From assembly GCA_963712665.1 (NCBI GenBank), contig CAVQIV010000024.1:271525-335524 (forward strand): a stretch of DNA of 64,000 nt, given 5' to 3'. The first letter of the stretch is position 1. Each line of letters begins with the position of its first letter. The notes under the pieces are model-generated. The model searched no databases. It worked only from the letters and a program-made list of their open reading frames with translations, and had not been told where the DNA came from. Shown here in pieces: positions 3,779 through 56,965 of this stretch. The translations under genes and the position numbers were made by a program. The stretch is from Thermoanaerobaculaceae bacterium (lineage in GTDB: Bacteria > Acidobacteriota > Thermoanaerobaculia > Multivoradales > UBA5704).

Positions 3779-5894
3779 TCATCGAGGCGAATATCTGTTA
3801 GAGGTGCGGAGCGAGGAGATCCCGGCCCGCATGCTGGAGCCCGGAGTGCGCGAGCTGGCCACCCGGATCTTCGAGGAGCTGATGGCGCGAGGGATCGGTC
3901 CCCGCGAAGTGGAGACCGGCTTCACGCCCCGCCGGCTGGTGCTCATCCTCTCCGGCCTGCCGGAAGGGGAGCCCGACCGCGAGGAGCAGGTGATGGGTCC
4001 GCCCGTGCGTGCCGCTTTCGCCGCCGACGGCTCGCCCACTCCGGCCCTCCTGGGCTTCGCCAAGCGCACGGGTCTGGAACCGGAGCAGCTCGCCAGGGTG
4101 CAGACCGAGAAGGGGGAGTACCTCGCGGCCACGAAGAAGATCGCCGGCCGGCCCACCCGCGAAGTGCTGGCGGAGATCGTGCCCCGCATTCTCGGCGCCA
4201 TCTCCTGGGCCAAGACCATGCGGTGGGGGAGCGGCACCGGTCCCTGGGTGCGTCCCCTCCACGGCATCGTCTCGCTCTTCGATGGCGAGCTGGTGCCCTT
4301 CGAGCTCCTGGGCGTGGCCGCCGGCGATACCACGGAGGGACACCCCACGCTCTCGCCTGCTGCTTTCCGGGTGATCGGGGCCGAGGACTACAAAAGCCAG
4401 CTCGCCGCCCGCCATCTCGAAGTGAGACCGGCCGAGCGCCGGCGCGCGCTCCACGAGACCATGCGCGACCGGGCCGAGGCCCTGGGCGGCCGGCTGGTGG
4501 ACGATCCCGCCCTGCTCGACAAGCTCACGGCCATCTGCGAGATCCCCGGCGTAATGGAAGGGAGCTTCGGCGATGCCTTCCTGGAGCTCCCCGCCGAGGT
4601 GCTCGCCACCAGCCTGCGCGATCATCAAAGCGCCCTCACCGTGGCCGCGCCTGCCCCCGCAGATATCAACGGCAAGCTGCTGCCCTACTTCCTCACCGTC
4701 ATGGACCGGCCGGACGACCCGGCGGGCCGCGTCCGCTCCGGCAACGAGTGGGTGGTGGCGGCGCGCCTCGCCGACGCCCGCTTCTTCTACGGCGAGGACC
4801 GCAAGGTCGGCCTCGCCCGGCGGGCCGAGCATCTCCAGTCCCTCAACTTCCACGAGCGTCTGGGGAGCTACGCCGTCAAGACCCTGCGCCTGGAATCGCT
4901 GGCCGCGACGATCTGCGACCAGCTCGACTGGGAGGCGGAAAAGGTGTCCGCCGTCGAGGCCGCGCACCTGCTCAAGGCCGATCTCGCCACCGAGATGGTC
5001 AAGGAGTTCACCTCCCTCCAGGGGATCATGGGCGGCATCTACGCCCGCGAGGAGGGATGGCCCGAGCCGGTCTGGCAGGCGATCTACGATCAATATCTCC
5101 CGGCCTCGACCGAGGATCCCATCCCCAGAGGCCGCGTGGGCCAGGTCGTGGGCCTCGCCGACCGCCTCGACACCCTGGTGGGCATTTTTGGATTAGGGCT
5201 GATCCCCACCGGCAGCAAAGACCCCTTCGGCCTGCGCCGAGCCGCCCAGGGGATCGTGAGGACCTGTCTCGAAGGCGGATTGACCCTCGACCTCGAAAAG
5301 GTTGTGATCGCCGCCGCGGAGCTCTACGGCGACCGGCTCACCCGCAAGCCGGACCAGATCCTGGACGACCTGCGGCCCTTCCTCAACGATCGCATCCGCT
5401 ACCTCCTGGGCCTCGCCGGCTACGCCTACGACGAGATCGAAGCGGCCCTGGCCGTGGGCATTTCCAGCCTGCCGGACCTCAAAGCCCGGGTCCACGCCCT
5501 CCACGAAGTGCGGGAGTCGGCCGACTTCCTCACCGTCGTGCTGGCCGCCAAGCGCATCGCCAACATCGTCAAGGACGCAGCCGACCGTCCCTTCGACGAG
5601 GCCCGTCTGGTGGAGCCAGCGGAGAAGGACCTCGCCGCCGCCTTCGGTAAGCTGCGTGCCGACATCGAAGAGGCCGCAGCCGCAGGCGATTACGAGCGCT
5701 GCCTGCGCCGCGTCGCCGACCTCGCCCCCGTGCTCGACCGCTTCTTCGTCGAGGTGCTGGTGATGGCCGAGGACGAGGCGGTACGGAGCAACCGTATTGC
5801 TTTGCTGCAGGCGATCGGGCGGGCCGTCTCCCGGACGGCGAAGCTCACCGAGATGGTGGTGGACAAGGCGGAGGCTCGGGCGAAGGCGGGGTAG
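3759..5894 (+). CDS. glyS: glycine--tRNA ligase beta subunit
   Basis: 711 aa with a GlyS N-terminus ([14 protein letters not shown]). It directly follows and overlaps glyQ. The exact start (3759 or 3765) is uncertain. Confidence 0.9.
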
Positions 5895-5900
5895 GGCTGA

Positions 5901-6161
5901 TCACCCGAAGGGGAGGCAGGTTGCTGTCCGGATTTTGACCTGTCCCTGACGTCCTTTGCTCTGCTCAGCGTGCTCGAGGACGGCTTCGATCTGCTCGCGG
6001 GTCACACCCGGAAACCAGTCCAGGAAATCGTCCACGCGTGCCCCGTCTTCGAAGTTCTCGAACAGAGCTTTGACGGGCACGCGCGTACCCTTGAAGAGCC
6101 AGGCGCCGCTGACCCTTCCCGCATCCCTTTCAACCGCTGGACACTGATTCCAATCGAGCAT
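5901..6161 (-). CDS. DUF433 domain protein (antitoxin-like HTH)
   Basis: GAWLFKGTRVPVKALFENFEDGARVDDFLDWFPGVTREQIEAVLEH matches the DUF433 pattern. No PIN/DUF5615 partner is adjacent. Confidence 0.7.
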   Translation of the reverse strand: MLDWNQCPAVERDAGRVSGAWLFKGTRVPVKALFENFEDGARVDDFLDWFPGVTREQIEAVLEHAEQSKGRQGQVKIRTATCLPFG

Positions 6162-6307
6162 GGCTCTAGGATAAGGCTTGGGTGCGCACGACGGCAAGCC
6201 CCGGATGGCTCCTCCCCTCCGCGACCGCGTCTAGTGTTGACTACTTACGCGAGATCGGCCACCCCGATGCCCGCTACGCCCCTCCGGGATCGTGTAGGAT
6301 CAACGCC

Positions 6308-6571
6308 ATGGAACCTCCGAAGATCAAGGTCGTGGGTCGGCGCCGAGTCGAGACTCGGTCTCTGGCCGATACGGACCGTCTTCTCCGGACCGCTTGGGCC
6401 CTTCGTGGAACCCCGGCCCTCGTCCCCAAGGGGGTATATCGTTTCCGCAGCTTCGAGGAGGCGGACGAATGGATGACGAGGATGATGGCCAGGACTCACG
6501 TGCGCCAACGATCGAAGATCTCGCCAGGGTCTGCGACTCCCTCAACCGGTCCGAAGCCCAGTACATCCTGA
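6308..6571 (+). CDS. hypothetical small protein (C-terminal GVYRFRSFEEADEW motif)
   Basis: ATG start ORF. It overlaps the next gene by about 100 nt, so its true 3' end is doubtful. Confidence 0.25.
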   Translation: MEPPKIKVVGRRRVETRSLADTDRLLRTAWALRGTPALVPKGVYRFRSFEEADEWMTRMMARTHVRQRSKISPGSATPSTGPKPSTS

Positions 6572-6978
6572 TCGGCGGCTTTGCCGTCATCGCCCACGGC
6601 GCCGGCCGGACGACCAAGGACATCGATTTCCTCATTGATCCGTCGCCCGAGAACGTCGCTCGGGTCAAGGCAGCGCTCAGCGTCCTCCCGGACAACGCCG
6701 GCGCGCTCATCGCCGATACGGACGTCGAGACCTACAAAGTCGTCCGGGTGGCGGACGAGGTGGTGATCGACCTTATGGGAAGCGCCTGCGGCGTGTCCTA
6801 CCAGGATGCGGTCAAGGACGCAGAGGTCCTGGAGATCGAAAGGGTTCAAGTCCCGGTAGCCAGCAAGCAGACCCTAATCCGCACCAAGGAGACGATTCGT
6901 CCTTCCGACCAGATCGATCGGGAGTTCCTGGCAGCATTGATTCGCGAAGAGGGCGCAGAAAAGCGTCCACGCCGGTGA
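6469..6978 (+). CDS. nucleotidyltransferase-fold protein (GG..A...HG..R.T.DIDF motif)
   Basis: YILIGGFAVIAHGAGRTTKDIDFLIDP is typical of small uncharacterised NTase-fold proteins. Codon usage is coherent. Confidence 0.6.
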   Translation: MDDEDDGQDSRAPTIEDLARVCDSLNRSEAQYILIGGFAVIAHGAGRTTKDIDFLIDPSPENVARVKAALSVLPDNAGALIADTDVETYKVVRVADEVVIDLMGSACGVSYQDAVKDAEVLEIERVQVPVASKQTLIRTKETIRPSDQIDREFLAALIREEGAEKRPRR

Positions 6979-6992
6979 TGACGAGATCGACA

Positions 6993-7190
6993 GCCCCGGA
7001 GGGGCGACAGGCTAGAGCCTGGGGCGTGAGCCCCAGGAACGTTGCCCCATAACGATTTCAAGCCCCGAAGGGCCGGCAGAAGATCTCCAGGATGCGGTCC
7101 TCTGCCGCCCCCTCGGGGCTTTGGGTTTGTGGTGGATCCCTTCCTGGGGCTTACGCCCCCAGGCTTCACGCTGCCGCCCCCTTCGGGGGC
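6993..7190. repeat. cluster of at least 6 GC-only stem-loops of two alternating sequence classes (possible structured RNA or REP-like element)
   Basis: GCCCC-gga-GGGGC (6993), CCTGGGGC-gtga-GCCCCAGG (7018), GCCC-cgaa-GGGC (7062), GCCCC-ctc-GGGGC (7107), CCTGGGGC-ttac-GCCCCCAGG (7143), GCCCCC-ttc-GGGGGC (7176). Confidence 0.6.
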
Positions 7191-7274
7191 TGAGATTCGC
7201 CGCGCGCACCCGCGGGGCGTCTAGCGCGTCGGACCGAGGTCGCCGCCCCGGAGGGACCCATCCCAGGCCCCAAA

Positions 7275-7554
7275 GTATATGAACTTTCCCATCCAGTATA
7301 TGGGGCGGCAAAAAATCGAGCGGGTACGCTACTCTCCCTATATGGACTGAGAAAAATTCTATATGGATTGAGCCGTTGGGTGTATGAACAGGGCTCCGCG
7401 AGGGGTGGGGACACCCTCCGGGCAGGGGTGCGAGCGGCTCCCCAGCGTCTCCCGAGGGCTGGTCTATATGGTGGCTCGACGAGTCTATATACTTTGGGTG
7501 CTCCCCAGGCCCTTCAGACGCTCGCGGTATATGATTTTTTGGCGAAGGTATATG
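7275..7554. repeat. phased motif array 1: STATATG on an exact 21-bp lattice
   Basis: Motif starts at 7275, 7296, 7338, 7359, 7380, 7464, 7485, 7527 and 7548. All spacings are multiples of 21 and the spacers are unrelated. Confidence 0.85.
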
Positions 7555-7875
7555 CGGCGGCGGGCTGAGAGGGTGTCGGAGACGTGGCGATTCCGCCCGG
7601 AGGGAAACACCCTTTCCGGACGCCCTCATTCAGACAGGCGGCTCGCTTTTCCCCCTCTCGTGCACACAGTCTTATAGAGCCAGCCCATTAGGATCTGACG
7701 ACGAGTCGGAACCGAAGGATTTCTTGAAACGATGCTCCGGCGTGTCGCGCAGTGCGCTCTCCATTCGGCCGTTCGAGCCGGCAAGATCTCGCCGGCTCAG
7801 CAGCATGGCCCCAGGGTCCCAGCTCTCATGGGGGGAGCTGGCTAGGCCCGGTGGCTTAACTTTTATGGCAGGAGA

Positions 7876-8724
7876 ATGGAAATGACGAGAGTCAGAGGTT
7901 TGAGCTGTGTGTTGATGCTGTTGTGCGGGTTGCTGTCCATCGCCGCGAACGCTCAGGTGCTGCAGCCGCCAGTGAGCGATCACATCGTCTACACCCCGGT
8001 GAAGGGCGCCATCGTCTCCAAGGCCGGGAACATCATCAACCACGGTGGACCGGTGATCACCTCGGCCAAGGTGGTCTTCATCTTCTGGGGCCCGAACTTC
8101 GCCAACGCCGCCCATCCCGATCACACCTACGCCACCACGCTGCAGGCCTTCCGCAACCAGTTCGGCACCACCGGTGAGTACAACACCATCACCCAGTACT
8201 CCGGCATCCAGTTGGCGAACCTCGGCTCGGGATCGGCCGACTGGTTCGATACCTCGACGCCGCCGACCAACGTCACCGACTCCGCCGTCCGCTCCAAGGT
8301 CACCTCCTATCTGGCGACCCACACCTTCAACAACAGCACGATCTACGAGGTCGTCATCCCCAGCTCCTCGTACTCGTCGAGCGGCAGCAGCACCTCGTGC
8401 GGCGGGCCGCGCCTCGCCTACTGCGCCTATCACAGTCACTACAGCACCAGTGGCCACGACGTGAAGTACTCCATCGAGCCCTATCCGAGCTGCAGCGGCT
8501 GCAAGGTCTCCGGCTGGTCGGACGTGCAGAACCAGGAGCACTTCACCTGCCACGAGACCCGCGAAGCCGTGACCGATCCGGACCTCAACGCCTGGTTCGA
8601 CAGCAGCGGCGCCGAGGCCGACGACAAGTGCGCCTGGTCGCCCTCGCCGTTCATCGGCACCGGCGGCTACGGCTATCAGTACGAGTGGTCGAACCTGACC
8701 GGCTCCTGCGTCAGGACGCGGTAG
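7876..8724 (+). CDS. secreted cysteine-containing protein, weakly PHI-1/EXORDIUM-like (paralog A)
   Basis: Signal peptide ending ANA-Q. Motifs NHGGPVITSAKVVFIFWGPNF, AYCAYH and HETREAVTDPDLNAWF. SD-like ggagaa lies upstream. Confidence 0.8.
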   Translation: MEMTRVRGLSCVLMLLCGLLSIAANAQVLQPPVSDHIVYTPVKGAIVSKAGNIINHGGPVITSAKVVFIFWGPNFANAAHPDHTYATTLQAFRNQFGTTGEYNTITQYSGIQLANLGSGSADWFDTSTPPTNVTDSAVRSKVTSYLATHTFNNSTIYEVVIPSSSYSSSGSSTSCGGPRLAYCAYHSHYSTSGHDVKYSIEPYPSCSGCKVSGWSDVQNQEHFTCHETREAVTDPDLNAWFDSSGAEADDKCAWSPSPFIGTGGYGYQYEWSNLTGSCVRTR

Positions 8725-8785: not shown

Positions 8786-8982
8786 GGCAGGTGGCTCACT
8801 TTTGCCCCCTTCGCTGCACTCTAGTCTGGTGGAGCCTTCCTCGGGAAGAGCTCTGCTATCCATGCTGCGAACCTTCTTCGCCATCCAGCCGCTCAAGAGA
8901 CGGCGAGATCGTCTTGACGTCTCTACCACCCTGCCTCCAGGGGGCTCGTCCTTCTGGCGGCATCAATAGGAGTACTAGGAGG

Positions 8983-9858
8983 ATGCAACTGATGAGGAGC
9001 AGGAGATTGAAGACTGTTGTGGCGCTTTCGTGTGGTCTGCTGGCCATGGCCGCGAGCATCGCCAATGCCGCGCCCGCAGAGAAGGCGAAGAAGCCCTTCG
9101 CGGACGCCGATCATGTCATCTACTTCCCCGTGCGCGGGGCCATCGTGCCCAAGGCCGGCCAGAACCTGGTGAACCATGGCGGCCCGACGATCACCTCGGC
9201 CAAGGTGGTCTTCCTCTTCTGGGGGCCGAACTTCAGCAACGCCGCCTCCCCAGACTTCGTGTACGCCACGACGCTGCAGGCCTTCCGCAACCAGTTCGGC
9301 ACCACCCCTGAATTCAACACCATCACGCAGTACTCCGGCATCCTGCTCTCGAACCTCGCCGCGGGAACCGCCGACGGCTTCGACAGCTCGACGCCGCCGA
9401 CCAACGTCACTGACGCCCTCGTCCGGTCTCACGTCAGTGCCTATCTGGCGACCCATGCCTTCGACAACAGCACGATCTATGAGGTCGTCCTCCCCAGCTC
9501 CTCGTACTCTTCGAGCGGCTCGAGCACCTCGTGCGGCGGACCGAGCCTCGCCTACTGCGCCTATCATGGCCACTTCACGAGCGGTGCGAACGACGTCAAG
9601 TACTCGATCGAGCCTTATCCGAGCTGCGGCGGCTGCAAGGTCGCGGGCTGGACGGACGTGCAGAATCAGGAGCACTTCACCTGCCATGAGACCCGTGAGG
9701 CCGTGACCGACCCGGACCTCAATGCCTGGTTTGACCGCTCCGGCAACGAGGCCGACGACAAGTGCGCCTGGTCGCCCACCCCGTTCATCGGCACCGGCGG
9801 CTTCGCCTACCAGTACGAGTGGTCGAACGCGACCAAGTCGTGCGTCAAGACGCGGTAG
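8983..9858 (+). CDS. secreted cysteine-containing protein, weakly PHI-1/EXORDIUM-like (paralog B)
   Basis: AGGAGG SD then ATG at 8983. Signal peptide ends ANA-A. About three quarters identical to paralog A by eye, with the same 7 Cys. Confidence 0.8.
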   Translation: MQLMRSRRLKTVVALSCGLLAMAASIANAAPAEKAKKPFADADHVIYFPVRGAIVPKAGQNLVNHGGPTITSAKVVFLFWGPNFSNAASPDFVYATTLQAFRNQFGTTPEFNTITQYSGILLSNLAAGTADGFDSSTPPTNVTDALVRSHVSAYLATHAFDNSTIYEVVLPSSSYSSSGSSTSCGGPSLAYCAYHGHFTSGANDVKYSIEPYPSCGGCKVAGWTDVQNQEHFTCHETREAVTDPDLNAWFDRSGNEADDKCAWSPTPFIGTGGFAYQYEWSNATKSCVKTR

Positions 9859-24134: not shown

Positions 24135-24260
24135 GGAGCAAGGACATAAAGGACAGCAAGGACAGAAAGGACGACAAGGACGTCAAGGACACGGGGGATC
24201 GTACCAAGTCCGGTATTTTGTCGTCCCTGCAGTCCTTGTTGTCCTTGCTGTCCTTTCAGC
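24135..24260. repeat. long hairpin built from 9-nt-periodic AAGGAC repeats (likely bidirectional terminator, related to the REP loop at 14461-14510)
   Basis: The left arm AAGGACataAAGGACagcAAGGACagaAAGGACgacAAGGACgtcAAGGAC pairs with the right arm GTCGTCCCTgcaGTCCTTgttGTCCTTgctGTCCTTt. It lies between convergent genes. Confidence 0.8.
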
Positions 24261-52722: not shown

Positions 52723-55700
52723 ATGGAAGCCTCACCCAAAAAGAAAAGGCCGCCCCCCAAGCCCGCCTCCAGGAAGCGCCGCGAGCCGCGGCAGCCGGAC
52801 GTGACCGAGCCGGCCGGCGATTCCTCGCACTACTCCTTTCCCATCGTCGGTATCGGGGCCTCCGCCGGCGGTCTCGAGGCCTTCCGGCAGTTGCTGCAAA
52901 ATCTGCCCGCGGACACCGGCGCGGCCTTCGTCCTGGTGCAGCACCTGGACCCCAAGCACGAGAGCATCCTGCCCGCGCTCCTCGCCCGCGCCACCACGAT
53001 GCCGGTGGACGAGGTGCGGGACAGCGTGAAGATCGAGCCCGACCACGTCTACGTGATCCCGTCTCACATGGACCTGGCGATCGCGGAGGGGCACCTGAGG
53101 CTCTTGCCGCGGACGGTGCCGCCGGACCGGCACATGCCGGTCGACCTCTTCTTTCGCACGCTGGCGGAGGCTGAAGGCGGCAAGGCCATCGGGGTGGTCC
53201 TTTCAGGGACCGCTTCCGACGGCACCCTGGGGCTCGAGGCGATCAGGGCCGCCGGCGGCATCTGCCTGGCGCAGGACCCGCAGTCCGCCGGGTTCGACGG
53301 CATGCCGCGCAGCGCCATCGCGGCGGGCTGTGTCGACATCGTCCTGCCTCCCGACGGCCTCGCCCTGGAGATCGCGCGGCTGGTCAGCGGCTCCTACCTC
53401 CGGCAGCCGCGCGGCGAGCCGGCACACGAGGAGCTGCTCGCAGCCGAGCGGGGTGGTCTCGAGATGATCTTCGCGCTGCTGAGGAAGGCCACGGGCAGGG
53501 ATCTCGCCGGATACAAGAAGCCGACGCTGTTGCGCCGCATCCGGCGGCGCATGGCGCTCTGCCAGAGCGAAGGGCTCGCGGACTACGCCAGACGTCTGGA
53601 GAGCCACCCCGCGGAGGTCCAGGACCTGTATCAGGACCTGCTGATCAACGTCACCTCCTTCTTCCGAGACCCGGAGGCCTTCGCCGCCTTGTGCCGGGAC
53701 GTGCTCCCGCGGTTGCTGCAGGACCGGCCCGCCGACGCGCCGTTCCGGGTGTGGGTGCCCGGCTGCTCGACGGGCGAGGAGGTGTATTCGATCGCCATCT
53801 GCCTCCTGGAGAGCTTCGACGGCCTCAACGGCGGGCCGCCCATCCAGATCTTCGGCACGGACATCCGCGACGGCGCCGTGGAAACGGCGCGGGCCGGGAC
53901 CTACCTGGAGAACATCGCCGCCGACGTCTCTCCCGAGCGCCTGGCGCGCTTCTTCGCCAAGGCGGACGGCCACTACCAGGTGATCAAGGCCATCCGCGAC
54001 GTGTGCGTCTTCGCCCGCCACGACCTGATCCGGGACCCGCCCTTCTCCCGCCTCGACCTCATCAGTTGCCGCAACGTCCTCATCTACCTCGAGCCCGTCG
54101 TGCAGCGGCGGGTGATGGCCAACTTCCACTACGCCTTGAATCCCAAGGGCGTCCTCGTCCTGGGAAGCTCGGAGACGGCCGGCGGGTCATCCGACCTGTT
54201 CCTGCCGGTCGACGCGAGCACAAGGTCTTCGCCCCGGTAGAGAGGGTGGCCCACAGCGTCCCCGGCCCCGGCGCGGGCACCTACCGGGAGGGGCCGTCTT
54301 CGGCACCCGGGCGAGCCGTCACCCGCGACGCCGGGGACCGCGGCGACGTGCAGCGGGAGGCCGACCGGATCCTGCTCAGCGGTACGGCCCGGCGGGCGTC
54401 CTCGTCGACGAGAACCTGGACATCCTGCAGTTCCGCGGCGACACCCATCCCTACGTCGAGCACGCGCCCGGCGACGCGAGCCTCAGCCTGCTCCGGATGA
54501 TCCCGAGGGTCTGCTGGCCGGGCTGCGCGAGGCGATCCAGGAGGCCCGGGCCACCCGCGCGCCGGTCCGCCGGCAGGGACTGACGTTCCGCCACCACGAA
54601 AGTTTCCGCAGCGTGGACATTGAGGCCGTCCCCGTCCAGGGGCGTTCCTCCGGACAGCTCTGCTTCCTCGTGCTCTTCTCGGAGCCACCAGACGTCCAGC
54701 GGGGACCGGAGCAACCCCCGCCGACCCTCCCCAGGCGAGAGGCGGACCGCCAGATCGCCCACCTGGAGCGCGAGCTGGCGTCGACCCAGCAGTACCTGCA
54801 GGCCGTCATCGAGGACCAGAGCGCCGCCAACGAGGAGCTGCAGGCCGCCAACGAGGAGATCCTCTCCAGCAACGAGGAGCTGCAGAGCCTCAACGAGGAG
54901 CTGGAGACCGCCAAGGAAGAGCTCCAGTCGAGCAACGAAGAGCTCAACACGCTGAACGAGGAGCTGCAGAACCGCAACCTGGAGCTGGACCTGCTCGGCG
55001 ACGACCTGATCAACCTGCTCTCCAGTCTCCACATCCCGGTGGTCCTGCTGAGCCCGGACCTGCGCCTGCGCCGCTTCACCCCCGCGGCCGCGCGGCTGAT
55101 GAACCTCCTTCCCGCGGACGTCAACCGGCCGCTGAACGACATCCGGCCCAACTTCGACCTGCCCAGCCTGGAGGTGGCGATCCTGGAGGCGATCGAGACC
55201 GTCACCCTGATCGAGCGGGAGGTCCAGGACCGCCAGGGGTGCTGGTACTCGCTGCGCATCCGGCCCTACAAGACCCGGGATAACCGGATCGACGGCGCGG
55301 TGATGGTGCTGGTGGACGTCGACGCCCTGAAGCGCGGCGCCGTGGAGGTTGCCGAGGCCCGCGACTTCGCGGACGCCATCATCGAGACGGTGCGGGAGCC
55401 TCTCCTCGTGCTGGACGCGGAGCTGCGGGTGGAGAGGGCGAACCGCAACTTCTACGACTCCTTCCGGGTGCGGCGGGAGGAGACGGAAGGCCGGCTCCTC
55501 AAGGATCTGGGCAACGGCCAGTGGAACGTCCCCGAGCTGCGCGAGGCGCTGCGGTCCATCCTCGCGGACGACCACGAGATCCAGGATTTCGAGGTGGAGC
55601 GCGAGATTCCCGCAGATCGGCCGCCGGACGATGGTGCTCAATGCCCGCCGGGTGCGGCGGGACGGTCGCGGAGCGGAGAAGATCCTGGTCGCCATCGAGG

Positions 55701-56965
55701 ACCGGACGGAGGTCAAGCGAGCGGAGGAGGAGCGCGCCCTGCTGGCCCGCCAGGCCGAGGAGGCCAGCCGGCTCAAGGACGAGTTCCTGGCCACGGTCTC
55801 ACACGAGCTGCGCGGCCCCTTGAGCGCCATGGCCGGGTGGGTCCACGTGCTGGCGGCGGGCCAGGCGGACGCGGCGACCCTCGCCCGCGGGCTGGCGGCG
55901 ATCGATCGCAACGTCCAGGCGCAGGCGCGGCTCATCGAGGATCTCCTGGACGCCGCCCGGATCACGACGGGGAAGCTGCGCCTGTCTCCTCGCGTGATCG
56001 ACCTGCTGCCGGTGGTCGAGGCGGCCGTCGAGACCGTGCGCGCGGCGGCCGACGCCAAGGGCGTCGCCCTCGAGCTCGCGCACGACGACGCGCGTCAACA
56101 CCGTCCTGGGCGATCCGGACCGCCTGCAGCAGATCGCCTGGAACCTGCTCTCGAACGCCGTGAAGTTCACGCCGCGCGGCGGCCGCGTCGAAGCCTGGCT
56201 GGGCCGCGTGGAGAGCTCGATCCGCCTGCGGGTCCGCGACACGGGCCAGGGCATCAGCCCGGAGTTCCTGCCCCACGTCTTCAAGCGCTTCCGCCAGGAG
56301 GAGAGCACCCCGGCCCGGAGCCAGACCGGGCTCGGCCTCGGACTGTCCATCGTGCGCCACCTGTCGAGCTGCACGGCGGGACGGTGTCGGTGACGAGCCC
56401 GGGGGAGGGACGGGGGGCGACGTTCACGGTGGCCCTCCCGGTCCCGGCGCTCCTCATGACGGAGCCGGAAGACGGGCAGCCGGCGAGGATTGAGACCGGC
56501 GACGGGCGGCCACTCGCAGGTCTGCGCCTGCTGGTCGTCGAAGATGAGGACACCGGCCGGGAGATGCTCGTCGCGCTCCTCGAACAGTACGGTGCCGAAG
56601 TGGTCGCGGCCGCCTCGGCCGAAGAGGCCCTGGCGGCGTTGGAACGCATCGTTCCGGATGTGCTGCTGAGCGACATCGGAATGCCGGGGCAGAGCGGTTA
56701 CGATCTGCTGCGCCGGGTGCGGTCGCTCTCCGTCGATCGCGGCTCCCGGGTCCCAGCCATCGCCTTCACCGCCTATTCCTCCGACCAGGACCGCCTGACC
56801 TCCCTCGACGCCGGTTTCCAGGCCCATCTCGCCAAGCCGGCGGACCCCGCCCGGCTGGTCGCGATGATCACCGCGCTCGCGCAGCGGGGGGGGGAGATCC
56901 GCTCCCGGGTGTATGAGCCGGTGCCTTCGGACCGGGATTGTACAAGCGTACATCGAGACATCTAG
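52723..56965 (+). pseudogene. CheB-CheR fusion / PAS / coiled-coil / histidine kinase / receiver multidomain signalling protein, about 5 frameshifts as sequenced
   Basis: CheB (IVGIGASAGGLEAF), CheR (VWVPGCSTGEEVYS), an NEEL coiled-coil repeat, PAS, H-box [20 protein letters not shown], and REC (LLVVEDEDTGR...LLSDIGMPG). Confidence 0.85.

Follow-up and report, generated by a model that had tools for sequence, protein, structure and literature searches.

The stretch of DNA analysed here, called the window below, comprises 64,000 nucleotides of contig CAVQIV010000024.1 (positions 271,525 to 335,524) from a Thermoanaerobaculaceae bacterium of the Acidobacteriota. Between positions 7269 and 7568 it contains a non-coding array of nine short AT boxes that stand on an exact 21-bp lattice. 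Judged by comparison with related sequences, this is a genuine, selected and helically phased array, and docking of a protein along it is predicted. In three relatives the same kind of array lies immediately upstream of a vapBC toxin-antitoxin operon, and in the window this operon has been lost. The array is tentatively proposed, with a probability of roughly 0.45, to be an operator of the ccdAB/FitAB type, extended and multivalent, that serves VapB or the VapBC complex; it has been orphaned here and is presumably still bound in trans.

The box array and its conservation

The nine boxes of the STATATG type are found within 7275-7554, all on the + strand, and most of them are paired at a distance of two helical turns. 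The whole array spans 14 lattice units of 21 bp, and a box is present in nine of them. An earlier note, made from the window alone, had given the nine box positions and the exact 21-bp lattice, and both are correct. Its claim that the lattice is not due to chance also holds. The window has eight exact copies of STATATG when both strands are counted, and seven of these are inside the array (0.84 copies expected, as the mean of dinucleotide-preserving shuffles; the shuffle maximum was four). TATATG alone gives the same picture of enrichment. If one mismatch is allowed, TATATG has nine sites in 280 bp that all share one phase modulo 21, and no other region of the window behaves in this way. The Rayleigh statistic R is 1.0 at periods of both 21 and 10.5 bp (p < 5e-5 against random placement).

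The spacers between the boxes have a mean pairwise identity of 0.26. This is the random level, and the array is therefore not a tandem repeat. When the boxes are taken as two-box modules, these have at most 10 of 28 spacer positions in common, which is not significant against a null mean of 7.2. The 84-bp gap in the lattice had been described as GC-rich; its 63-bp core (7401-7463) has 76% G+C, compared with 56% for the array.

The genes that flank the array assign the window to the Thermoanaerobaculia. Relatives were gathered through protein anchors, and the comparison covers five contigs of the Thermoanaerobaculia: the window and four further contigs with homologous arrays, here labelled L104, L239, L240 and L241. 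L104, from a forest-soil metagenome, is the closest array-bearing relative and has diverged from the window by about 15% at the nucleotide level. It has nine boxes at identical offsets, and the same two boxes are degenerate. L239, whose GlyS belongs to the same 90% cluster as GlyS of the window, has ten boxes at offsets 0, 21, 63, 84, 105, 126, 209, 231, 272 and 293; this is the plan of the window with one extra 21-bp unit and with three boxes displaced by one base. L241 has about nine boxes, for which the best-fitting period is 21.15 bp, while the short array of L240 has five boxes (four to five as YATATR) and retains the vapB-proximal pair. YATATR boxes on a 21- or 10.5-bp phase number 8-10 in four of the genomes and 4-5 in L240.

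The boxes are clearly more conserved than the sequence around them. In a four-way alignment, 32 of the 36 columns that make up the ATAT cores show no variation, compared with 75 of 264 columns elsewhere (p = 2e-12). Between the window and L104 there are no differences in the 54 positions of the box hexamers, compared with 45 in the 246 remaining positions (p = 9e-5). It is thus the motif and its register that are conserved and not the spacers, as the earlier note had proposed, and the register is kept in the orthologous region of the relatives. The motif itself needs to be redefined. The boxes of L239 and L241 are a mixture of TATATG, CATATA, CATATG and TATATA, that is, palindromic YATATR, and the conserved part is the ATAT core within this hexamer instead of an AT-only heptamer. 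Three of the boxes in L239 are in forward and three in reverse orientation, while four are palindromic, and L241 is similar. A uniform box orientation is limited to the lineage of the window and L104.

The spacing between the boxes is conserved in a manner that relates to the DNA helix. In the box-free filler, the window differs from L104 by indels of -1, +2 and -1 relative to L104, and the 84-bp box-to-box distance is unchanged. The indel seen in L239 and L241 is exactly one 21-bp lattice unit. In L240 the boxes form two groups with a step of 32 bp between them; there is no longer a 21-bp lattice (R = 0.08), but the 10.5-bp phasing is kept (R = 0.99). The compensated indels, the whole-unit indel and the 10.5-bp phasing in L240 imply a constraint on one face of double-stranded DNA. 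As far as sequence comparison can tell, this points to a constraint that acts on duplex B-DNA with the boxes facing one side, in agreement with the earlier suggestion that all sites are on the same face.

Outside the arrays the motif is rare. In approximately 155 kb of related loci, 41 of the 46 occurrences of YATATR are within arrays, and every pair of YATATR hexamers 19-23 bp apart is in an array. This near-confinement indicates a dedicated cis element, and not a broad regulon or a general architectural regulon.

Some similar sequences were observed elsewhere. A soil contig of 66% G+C (L139, 716-841) has six boxes resembling (C/T)ATATG with a spacing of 21-22 bp and unrelated spacers. It displays a short and marginal similarity to boxes 1-2 of the window (z = 3.5) and is possibly a distant array of the same kind; no vapBC is visible on this 1.4-kb contig. 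Two contigs of Arhodomonas type, L092 (reverse complement, about 2644-2727) and L224 (reverse complement, about 1602-1706), have four to five units of CACCGG-GTATATG with variable middles beside the end of a gene, with a partly conserved 21-bp lattice and the same heptamer.

Linkage to vapBC, its loss and the present surroundings

In L239, L240 and L241 the array ends 45-65 bp 5' of the TTG start codon of a vapB gene and in the same orientation, whatever the upstream genes are. The array is thus immediately 5' of an antitoxin gene, which is the position of a toxin-antitoxin operator, in these three relatives, and not in the window or L104. The last box pair has the consensus GGTATATR-N13/14-YATATRYGGCRAC in all three. 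The earlier note stated that no DNA-binding gene is adjacent to the array; this is true for the window, but not for the three relatives. Their VapB belongs to PF09957, which provides the DNA-binding domain that a cognate antitoxin should have, and the nearest solved structure is the ribbon-helix-helix antitoxin VapB11 (PDB 6a7v), which is matched over the full length but weakly (E = 0.018). The gene that follows vapB in the three genomes encodes a VapC toxin with a PIN domain (NF047959).

The gene order of L239 is glyQ-glyS, array, vapBC, a hydrolase gene, an unknown gene, a DyP peroxidase gene, two paralogous secreted-protein genes and an ACC-like gene. The window is collinear with this, except that the segment from vapB to DyP is missing both here and in L104, and no vapBC orthologue was found within the 64 kb using tblastn. 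In the window and in L104 the array instead abuts the promoter/leader of the secreted-protein gene. The sequence at this junction is found in none of the other loci that were fetched. Being common only to the window and L104, it indicates that vapBC was lost once in their ancestor, and that the array was orphaned before the two diverged. Together with vapBC, the deletion took away the three further genes, and it fused the array to the promoter/leader. According to the alignments, the orphan boxes have been under purifying selection since this loss.

The gene upstream of the array varies. It encodes a nucleotidyltransferase in the window and a TPR protein in L104, while L241 has a TPR gene and a nucleotidyltransferase fragment, and L239 and L240 have glyS at this place. 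The features of the locus are collected in Table 1.

Table 1. Features in and around the box array of the window
Feature	Position	Strand	Remarks
Conserved array	7269..7568	+	Homology to L104 begins at 7269; homologous arrays in L239, L241 and L240
Box 1, GTATATG	7275..7281	+	ATAT core invariant in the four-way alignment
Box 2, GTATATG	7296..7302	+	Paired with box 1 at 21 bp
Box 3, CTATATG	7338..7344	+	Exact STATATG copy
Box 4, CTATATG	7359..7365	+	Paired with box 3
Box 5, GTGTATG (degenerate)	7380..7386	+	CCATATG in L239 and L241; followed by a conserved GAAC..GGCTCC block
Box-free filler, 76% GC, three lattice units	7401..7463	.	Fastest-diverging part; length conserved
Box 6, CTATATG	7464..7470	+	Exact STATATG copy
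Box 7, CTATATA	7485..7491	+	Paired with box 6, from which a short hairpin/palindrome separates it in every genome
Box 8, GTATATG	7527..7533	+	Counterpart of the vapB-proximal pair in relatives, consensus GGTATATR
Box 9, GTATATG, then CGGCGRCGG	7548..7554	+	Last box; 45-65 bp 5' of the vapB start in L239, L240 and L241
GC-rich repeat of 36 bp	7565..7600	+	94% identity to L104 471-506; single copy in the window
Junction segment ACACCCTTTCCGGA	7601..7632	+	Common only to the window and L104; site of the ancestral loss of the segment from vapBC to DyP
Promoter/leader of the secreted-protein gene	7633..7875	+	Outside the array; also in array-less relatives
Secreted hypothetical protein gene	7876..8724	+	Current downstream neighbour
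AbiEii/DUF6036-like nucleotidyltransferase gene	6469..6978	+	Current upstream neighbour; a similar fragment precedes the L241 array

The secreted-protein gene downstream of the array and the gene that follows it (8791-9858) are tandem paralogues that encode a signal peptide; neither has a Pfam or NCBIfam family. The family comprises 2631 homologues and is very abundant in soil metagenomes of Thermoanaerobaculia. The upstream region of the gene (window 7633-7875) is strongly conserved and is also found in L104, L105, L226, L227, L228 and L239. It contains GGCTCGCTTTT..GCACACAGTCTTATAGAGCC and two conserved hairpins, GAGCCGGCG..CGCCGGCTC and GGCCCCAGGG..CAGCTCTCATGGGGGGAGCTG..CCCGGTGGCT, as well as a possible pairing of CTCTC with the ribosome-binding site. 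There is no Rfam match for this region, which is a candidate cis-regulatory leader. The array was also considered as a regulatory module of the downstream gene (282 amino acids). This was rejected, as the gene and its leader occur without the array in five loci (L105, L226-L229), and as the array of L239 is 4 kb and five genes away from it.

On the upstream side, a DUF433 gene (5901-6197, - strand) is found 1.1 kb from the array of the window. This gene and the nucleotidyltransferase gene have a third-codon-position G+C of about 0.7, which is below that of the surrounding genes, and together they resemble a toxin-antitoxin-like pair that was inserted in the interval from glyS to the array. The nucleotidyltransferase fragment in front of the L241 array is 58 amino acids long. 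The Acido-Lenti-1 RNA motif (RF01687) is present at 6992-7037 on the - strand with 52.5 bits (gathering score 37), and a second, inverted and weaker copy (28.7 bits) is found at 7143-7191 on the + strand, just 5' of the array. The motif is also found 3' of glyS in L240 (8150-8195, - strand) and L241 (8434-8480, - strand), and so is a feature that regularly accompanies the 3' region of glyS. The GC-rich segment of 36 bp, GAGAGGGTGTCGGAGACGTGGCGATTCCGCCCGG, is located downstream of the array in the window and upstream of it in L104, and behaves like a small mobile repeat. One alignment hinted at a remnant of the vapB leader 3' of box 9, but this candidate was rejected.

Other periodic sequences were encountered as well. 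A second 21-bp periodicity in the window (54772-54982; GAGCTG, CGAGGA) belongs to the gene of a PAS-domain protein (54613-56163, + strand), and represents ordinary coding heptad repeats of an N-terminal coiled coil (ATG16-like match, residues 32-135); it may be another array that the earlier note had in view. At 24139-24194 there are six copies of AAGGACNNN with a 9-bp period, followed after about 25 bp by four copies of the reverse complement GTCCTTNNN (24218-24257). Together these copies form a long periodic inverted repeat, and a very similar one is found in L227 (about 941-1060), in an unrelated intergenic region of Thermoanaerobaculia. In termite-gut Treponema, L079 (5864-6094, + strand) and L095 (reverse complement, about 5192-5527) have 10-16 tandem 21-bp units of CTATATGTCATAAAAGGAGGA. 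Each unit contains a Shine-Dalgarno sequence, ATG, one codon and a stop, thus making a row of minimal open reading frames that is unrelated to the array.

The proposed operator and alternative explanations

Type II toxin-antitoxin complexes, VapBC among them, are autorepressors that act on their promoters by binding to (pseudo)palindromes (PMC3384007, PMC5389673). The boxes, read as YATATR across the five genomes, are of this kind and suit a dimeric DNA-binding domain. In the VapBC11 hetero-octamer, as in FitAB bound to DNA, a distance of about 60 Å separates the two ribbon-helix-helix heads (PMC6265470), which fits box pairs two turns apart. A further precedent is the 113-bp ccdAB operator with its eight equally spaced, imperfect GTATAC palindromes, each of low affinity (PMC5389731). 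It is bound by an alternating chain of ribbon-helix-helix CcdA dimers and toxin dimers, and this chain works as a switch driven by the toxin:antitoxin ratio (PMC5389731). The arrays of four of the five genomes likewise have at least eight regularly spaced hexamer palindromes; some of the lattice positions are empty, unlike in ccd.

In the proposed model the array would be the 5' control region of a vapBC toxin-antitoxin cassette, with its short palindromic AT boxes, eight to ten in number and of the form YATATR (STATATG in the window), all turned to the same side of the helix. One ribbon-helix-helix VapB dimer would read one box. VapC dimers would then bridge the VapB dimers in the style of a VapB4C4 hetero-octamer, with each complex clamping one box pair, and several VapBC complexes would be aligned along one face of the DNA. 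The resulting multivalent repressor track might sense the toxin:antitoxin ratio in the manner of the ccdAB operator. The orphan array of the window is presumably still occupied in trans, for instance by the products of a vapBC paralogue at another genomic site, and an influence on the secreted-protein gene that now follows it is possible.

Several observations weigh against this model. The boxes are perfectly conserved although the vapBC in cis was lost before the window and L104 split; a purely cis-acting operator should have decayed, and a trans binder must therefore be assumed. The adjacency to vapBC is one ancestral linkage that was kept in three lineages, and did not arise three times independently. 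With its 280-400 bp, such an operator would, to our knowledge, be several times longer than any described toxin-antitoxin operator. The solved VapBC complexes are closed hetero-octamers and not open chains (PMC6265470, PMC3384007), and 21 bp (about 71 Å) somewhat exceeds the 60 Å between the DNA-binding heads. No convincing sigma-70 promoter was predicted at the proximal boxes, where promoter prediction was uninformative. Moreover, VapB or VapBC as the ligand of the boxes, the mode of binding and the present role of the orphan array are all points that we infer.

Alternatively, the array may be an autonomous scaffold for a host protein other than the antitoxin, with vapBC, the nucleotidyltransferase gene and the TPR gene as interchangeable neighbours. 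Such a protein might be a nucleoid-associated or silencer-like protein that reads the flexible minor grooves of TpA-rich DNA, or a transcription factor that oligomerises along one face. The array is the sole constant feature of the locus, as both flanks vary (vapBC, or after the deletion the secreted-protein gene, on the downstream side), and the boxes have been under strong purifying selection after vapBC was lost. An invariant ATAT core with loose flanks would also suit a readout of shape or minor groove, and the sites are phased on one helical face. Still, YATATR pairs are found nowhere else in the approximately 155 kb of related sequence, which is unusual for a general architectural protein, and wherever vapB is present, that is, in three genomes, the last pair stands at promoter distance from it, with no other AT-rich promoter-like element in between. 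Nor is there any candidate protein that can be named. On balance this explanation is considered somewhat unlikely, but it is the main rival of the operator model and a serious one.

The idea of independence from vapBC can be taken further. The array would then be a self-standing chromosomal element of a clade of Thermoanaerobaculia, a helically phased track of AT boxes that is coated or wrapped by some protein and stays at this locus while its flanks turn over. In a toxin-antitoxin version of the same idea it would be the longest multivalent toxin-antitoxin operator and the first orphan one, kept for titrating or sensing VapBC made elsewhere and signalling to a new target gene. Thus extended, the proposal appears rather unlikely.

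A function of the array at the RNA level, be it in a long 5' leader or in a small RNA, with the UAUAU blocks paired into conserved stems, is improbable. RNAalifold does pair box 1 with 7, 2 with 3, 4 with 6 and 8 with 9, and 19 of the pairs are changed on both sides. However, TATAT is self-complementary, so that pairing between boxes arises by construction; the number of "compensatory" pairs is the same on the reverse strand (19 of 77), with a covariation term close to zero. The window contains a perfect 12-bp inverted repeat made up by CCCAAAGTATAT (7269-7280) and ATATACTTTGGG (7487-7498). The spacer between boxes 6 and 7 is a hairpin that varies in sequence, GGCTC..GAGTC in the window and GGTAC..GTACC in L239 and L241, and two of these hairpins were flagged as terminator-like. 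The folding energy of the array is nevertheless unremarkable (z = -1.6 for the + strand and -1.0 for the - strand), and there is no Rfam match over it at E <= 1 or at the gathering score. An RNA would furthermore give no reason for an exact 21-nt register across compensating indels, or for the 10.5-nt phasing in L240.

The earlier note had compared the geometry with plasmid iterons, partition centromeres (of the ParR, SopB or TubR type) and the sites of head-to-tail filament formers (Xis/BldC). Many short sites on one face at a spacing of two turns do agree with this, but these identities have not stood up and are very improbable. In the five loci there is no rep, parA, parM, tubZ, integrase or excisionase gene beside the array; the context is chromosomal housekeeping, without tRNA genes, and comparison with 72,556 plasmids and 50,697 phages showed no similarity. 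In iterons 17-22 bp of each unit are conserved, while here it is only 6-7 bp. An obligatory head-to-tail arrangement is excluded by the box orientation, which is not conserved and is mixed in L239 and L241; this also sets the array apart from Cox sites and from direct repeats of the LytTR/SARP kind.

A functionless relic, either a decayed 21-bp minisatellite or a protein-coding heptad repeat, is refuted by the conservation pattern and the stop codons. The array does change by whole units, and 21-bp tandem repeats with STATATG are common in public genomes. Scans of genome, metagenome and viral contig collections with the pattern STATATG-N14-STATATG-N35-STATATG gave 103 genome loci and at least 120 metagenome loci, together at least 223 matches, as well as nine viral loci. 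Nearly all of the matches listed are 21-bp tandem repeats in which the whole unit is conserved, the others being a few three-site chance matches; beside them an array with random spacers stands out as unusual. Among those listed there is no relative, nor the source genome, which does not belong to the species representatives covered. Neutral decay cannot, however, keep the boxes intact while the spacers randomise to 26% identity. As to coding, the array of the window is covered by an open reading frame of 205 amino acids on the minus strand, and a frame is open on the + strand as well, but they have no Pfam match and the G+C content is flat by codon position, with 0.49-0.65 in the third position compared with 0.8-0.95 in real genes. 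Stop codons are found in all six frames across the L104 array, in which no frame is open; the lattice is thus not part of a coding heptad-repeat gene.

Two other candidates were tried and rejected. Transposon ends or attP arm sites do not fit, as there are no inverted copies and no transposase, integrase or tRNA genes. As to a replication origin, no DnaA boxes were seen on reading 6700-8200, for which no pattern search was run; the upstream genes point toward the array, and the minimum of the GC skew at about 10-11 kb is explained by local gene composition.

The main interest of the array is what maintains its conservation after it was orphaned. The mechanism of the multivalent ccdAB operator was called unique by those who described it (PMC5389731). 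If VapB or VapBC binds the array, this would be a second, independent and much longer example, with a different toxin family and in a poorly studied phylum, and ratio sensing by weak sites would be a more general design. An orphan copy that is kept intact would further imply cross-talk in trans between toxin-antitoxin systems, or re-use of an operator for an unrelated secreted-protein gene, both of which are much discussed and rarely shown. If the binder is not an antitoxin, the array, with its boxes that are virtually absent elsewhere, would be a tractable bait of 300 bp for a new DNA-organising protein in the Acidobacteriota.

Comparison with known systems

Plasmid iterons resemble the array in having a period of about 21-22 bp and one helical face. 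They differ from it by conserving the whole unit of 17-22 bp in direct orientation, and by their rep gene and AT-rich unwinding element; Pfam scans of the five loci found no rep gene among the neighbours of the array.

The sites of LytTR response regulators consist of two 9-bp direct repeats separated by 12 bp (PMC6193735), and are thus also short boxes paired exactly 21 bp apart. They are oriented, lie about 10 bp 5' of the -35 element and usually occur as a single pair, whereas the boxes of the array are palindromic, number 8-10 and have no conserved orientation. No LytTR gene was seen.

Arrays of short repeats are also found in centromeres bound by ribbon-helix-helix proteins, such as ParR-parC of R1 and pSK41, the heptads bound by omega of pSM19035, and ParG-parH. 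ParR, omega and ParG use many short sites in the same manner, and their cooperative dimers form a superstructure that either follows one face of the DNA or winds around the helix. These centromeres always adjoin a gene for a plasmid partition NTPase, which the array does not; no ParA, ParM or TubZ domain was found in the window or the compared loci. In addition, centromere repeats are contiguous with periods of 7-20 bp, and whole units are conserved.

The known VapBC and FitAB operators (FitAB-IR36, VapBC11 and VapBC1 of C. crescentus) involve the same antitoxin and toxin families as those found in L239, L240 and L241. The heads of one complex span about two helical turns, matching the 21-bp box pairs, and the array of the relatives is placed immediately 5' of vapB, as these operators are. 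We know of no orphan VapBC operator described so far that is kept under selection. While known operators of this group have one or two sites that overlap the promoter, the array has four or five pairs over 300-400 bp (PMC3384007, PMC5389673, PMC6265470).

The ccdAB operator shares with the array its many low-information 6-bp palindromes with a TATA core at regular spacing and, in the relatives, the position upstream of a type II operon with a ribbon-helix-helix antitoxin. By analogy, multivalency is the likely principle in both, rather than affinity for a single site. The two differ in spacing, which is 21 bp with skipped positions in the array and roughly 14 bp in ccd, and in length (280-400 bp and 113 bp, respectively). 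The toxin associated with the array is a PIN RNase, while that of ccd is a gyrase poison. Finally, ccdAB belongs to the F plasmid, whereas the array is found on the chromosome of Acidobacteriota and has, in the window, outlived its toxin-antitoxin genes.

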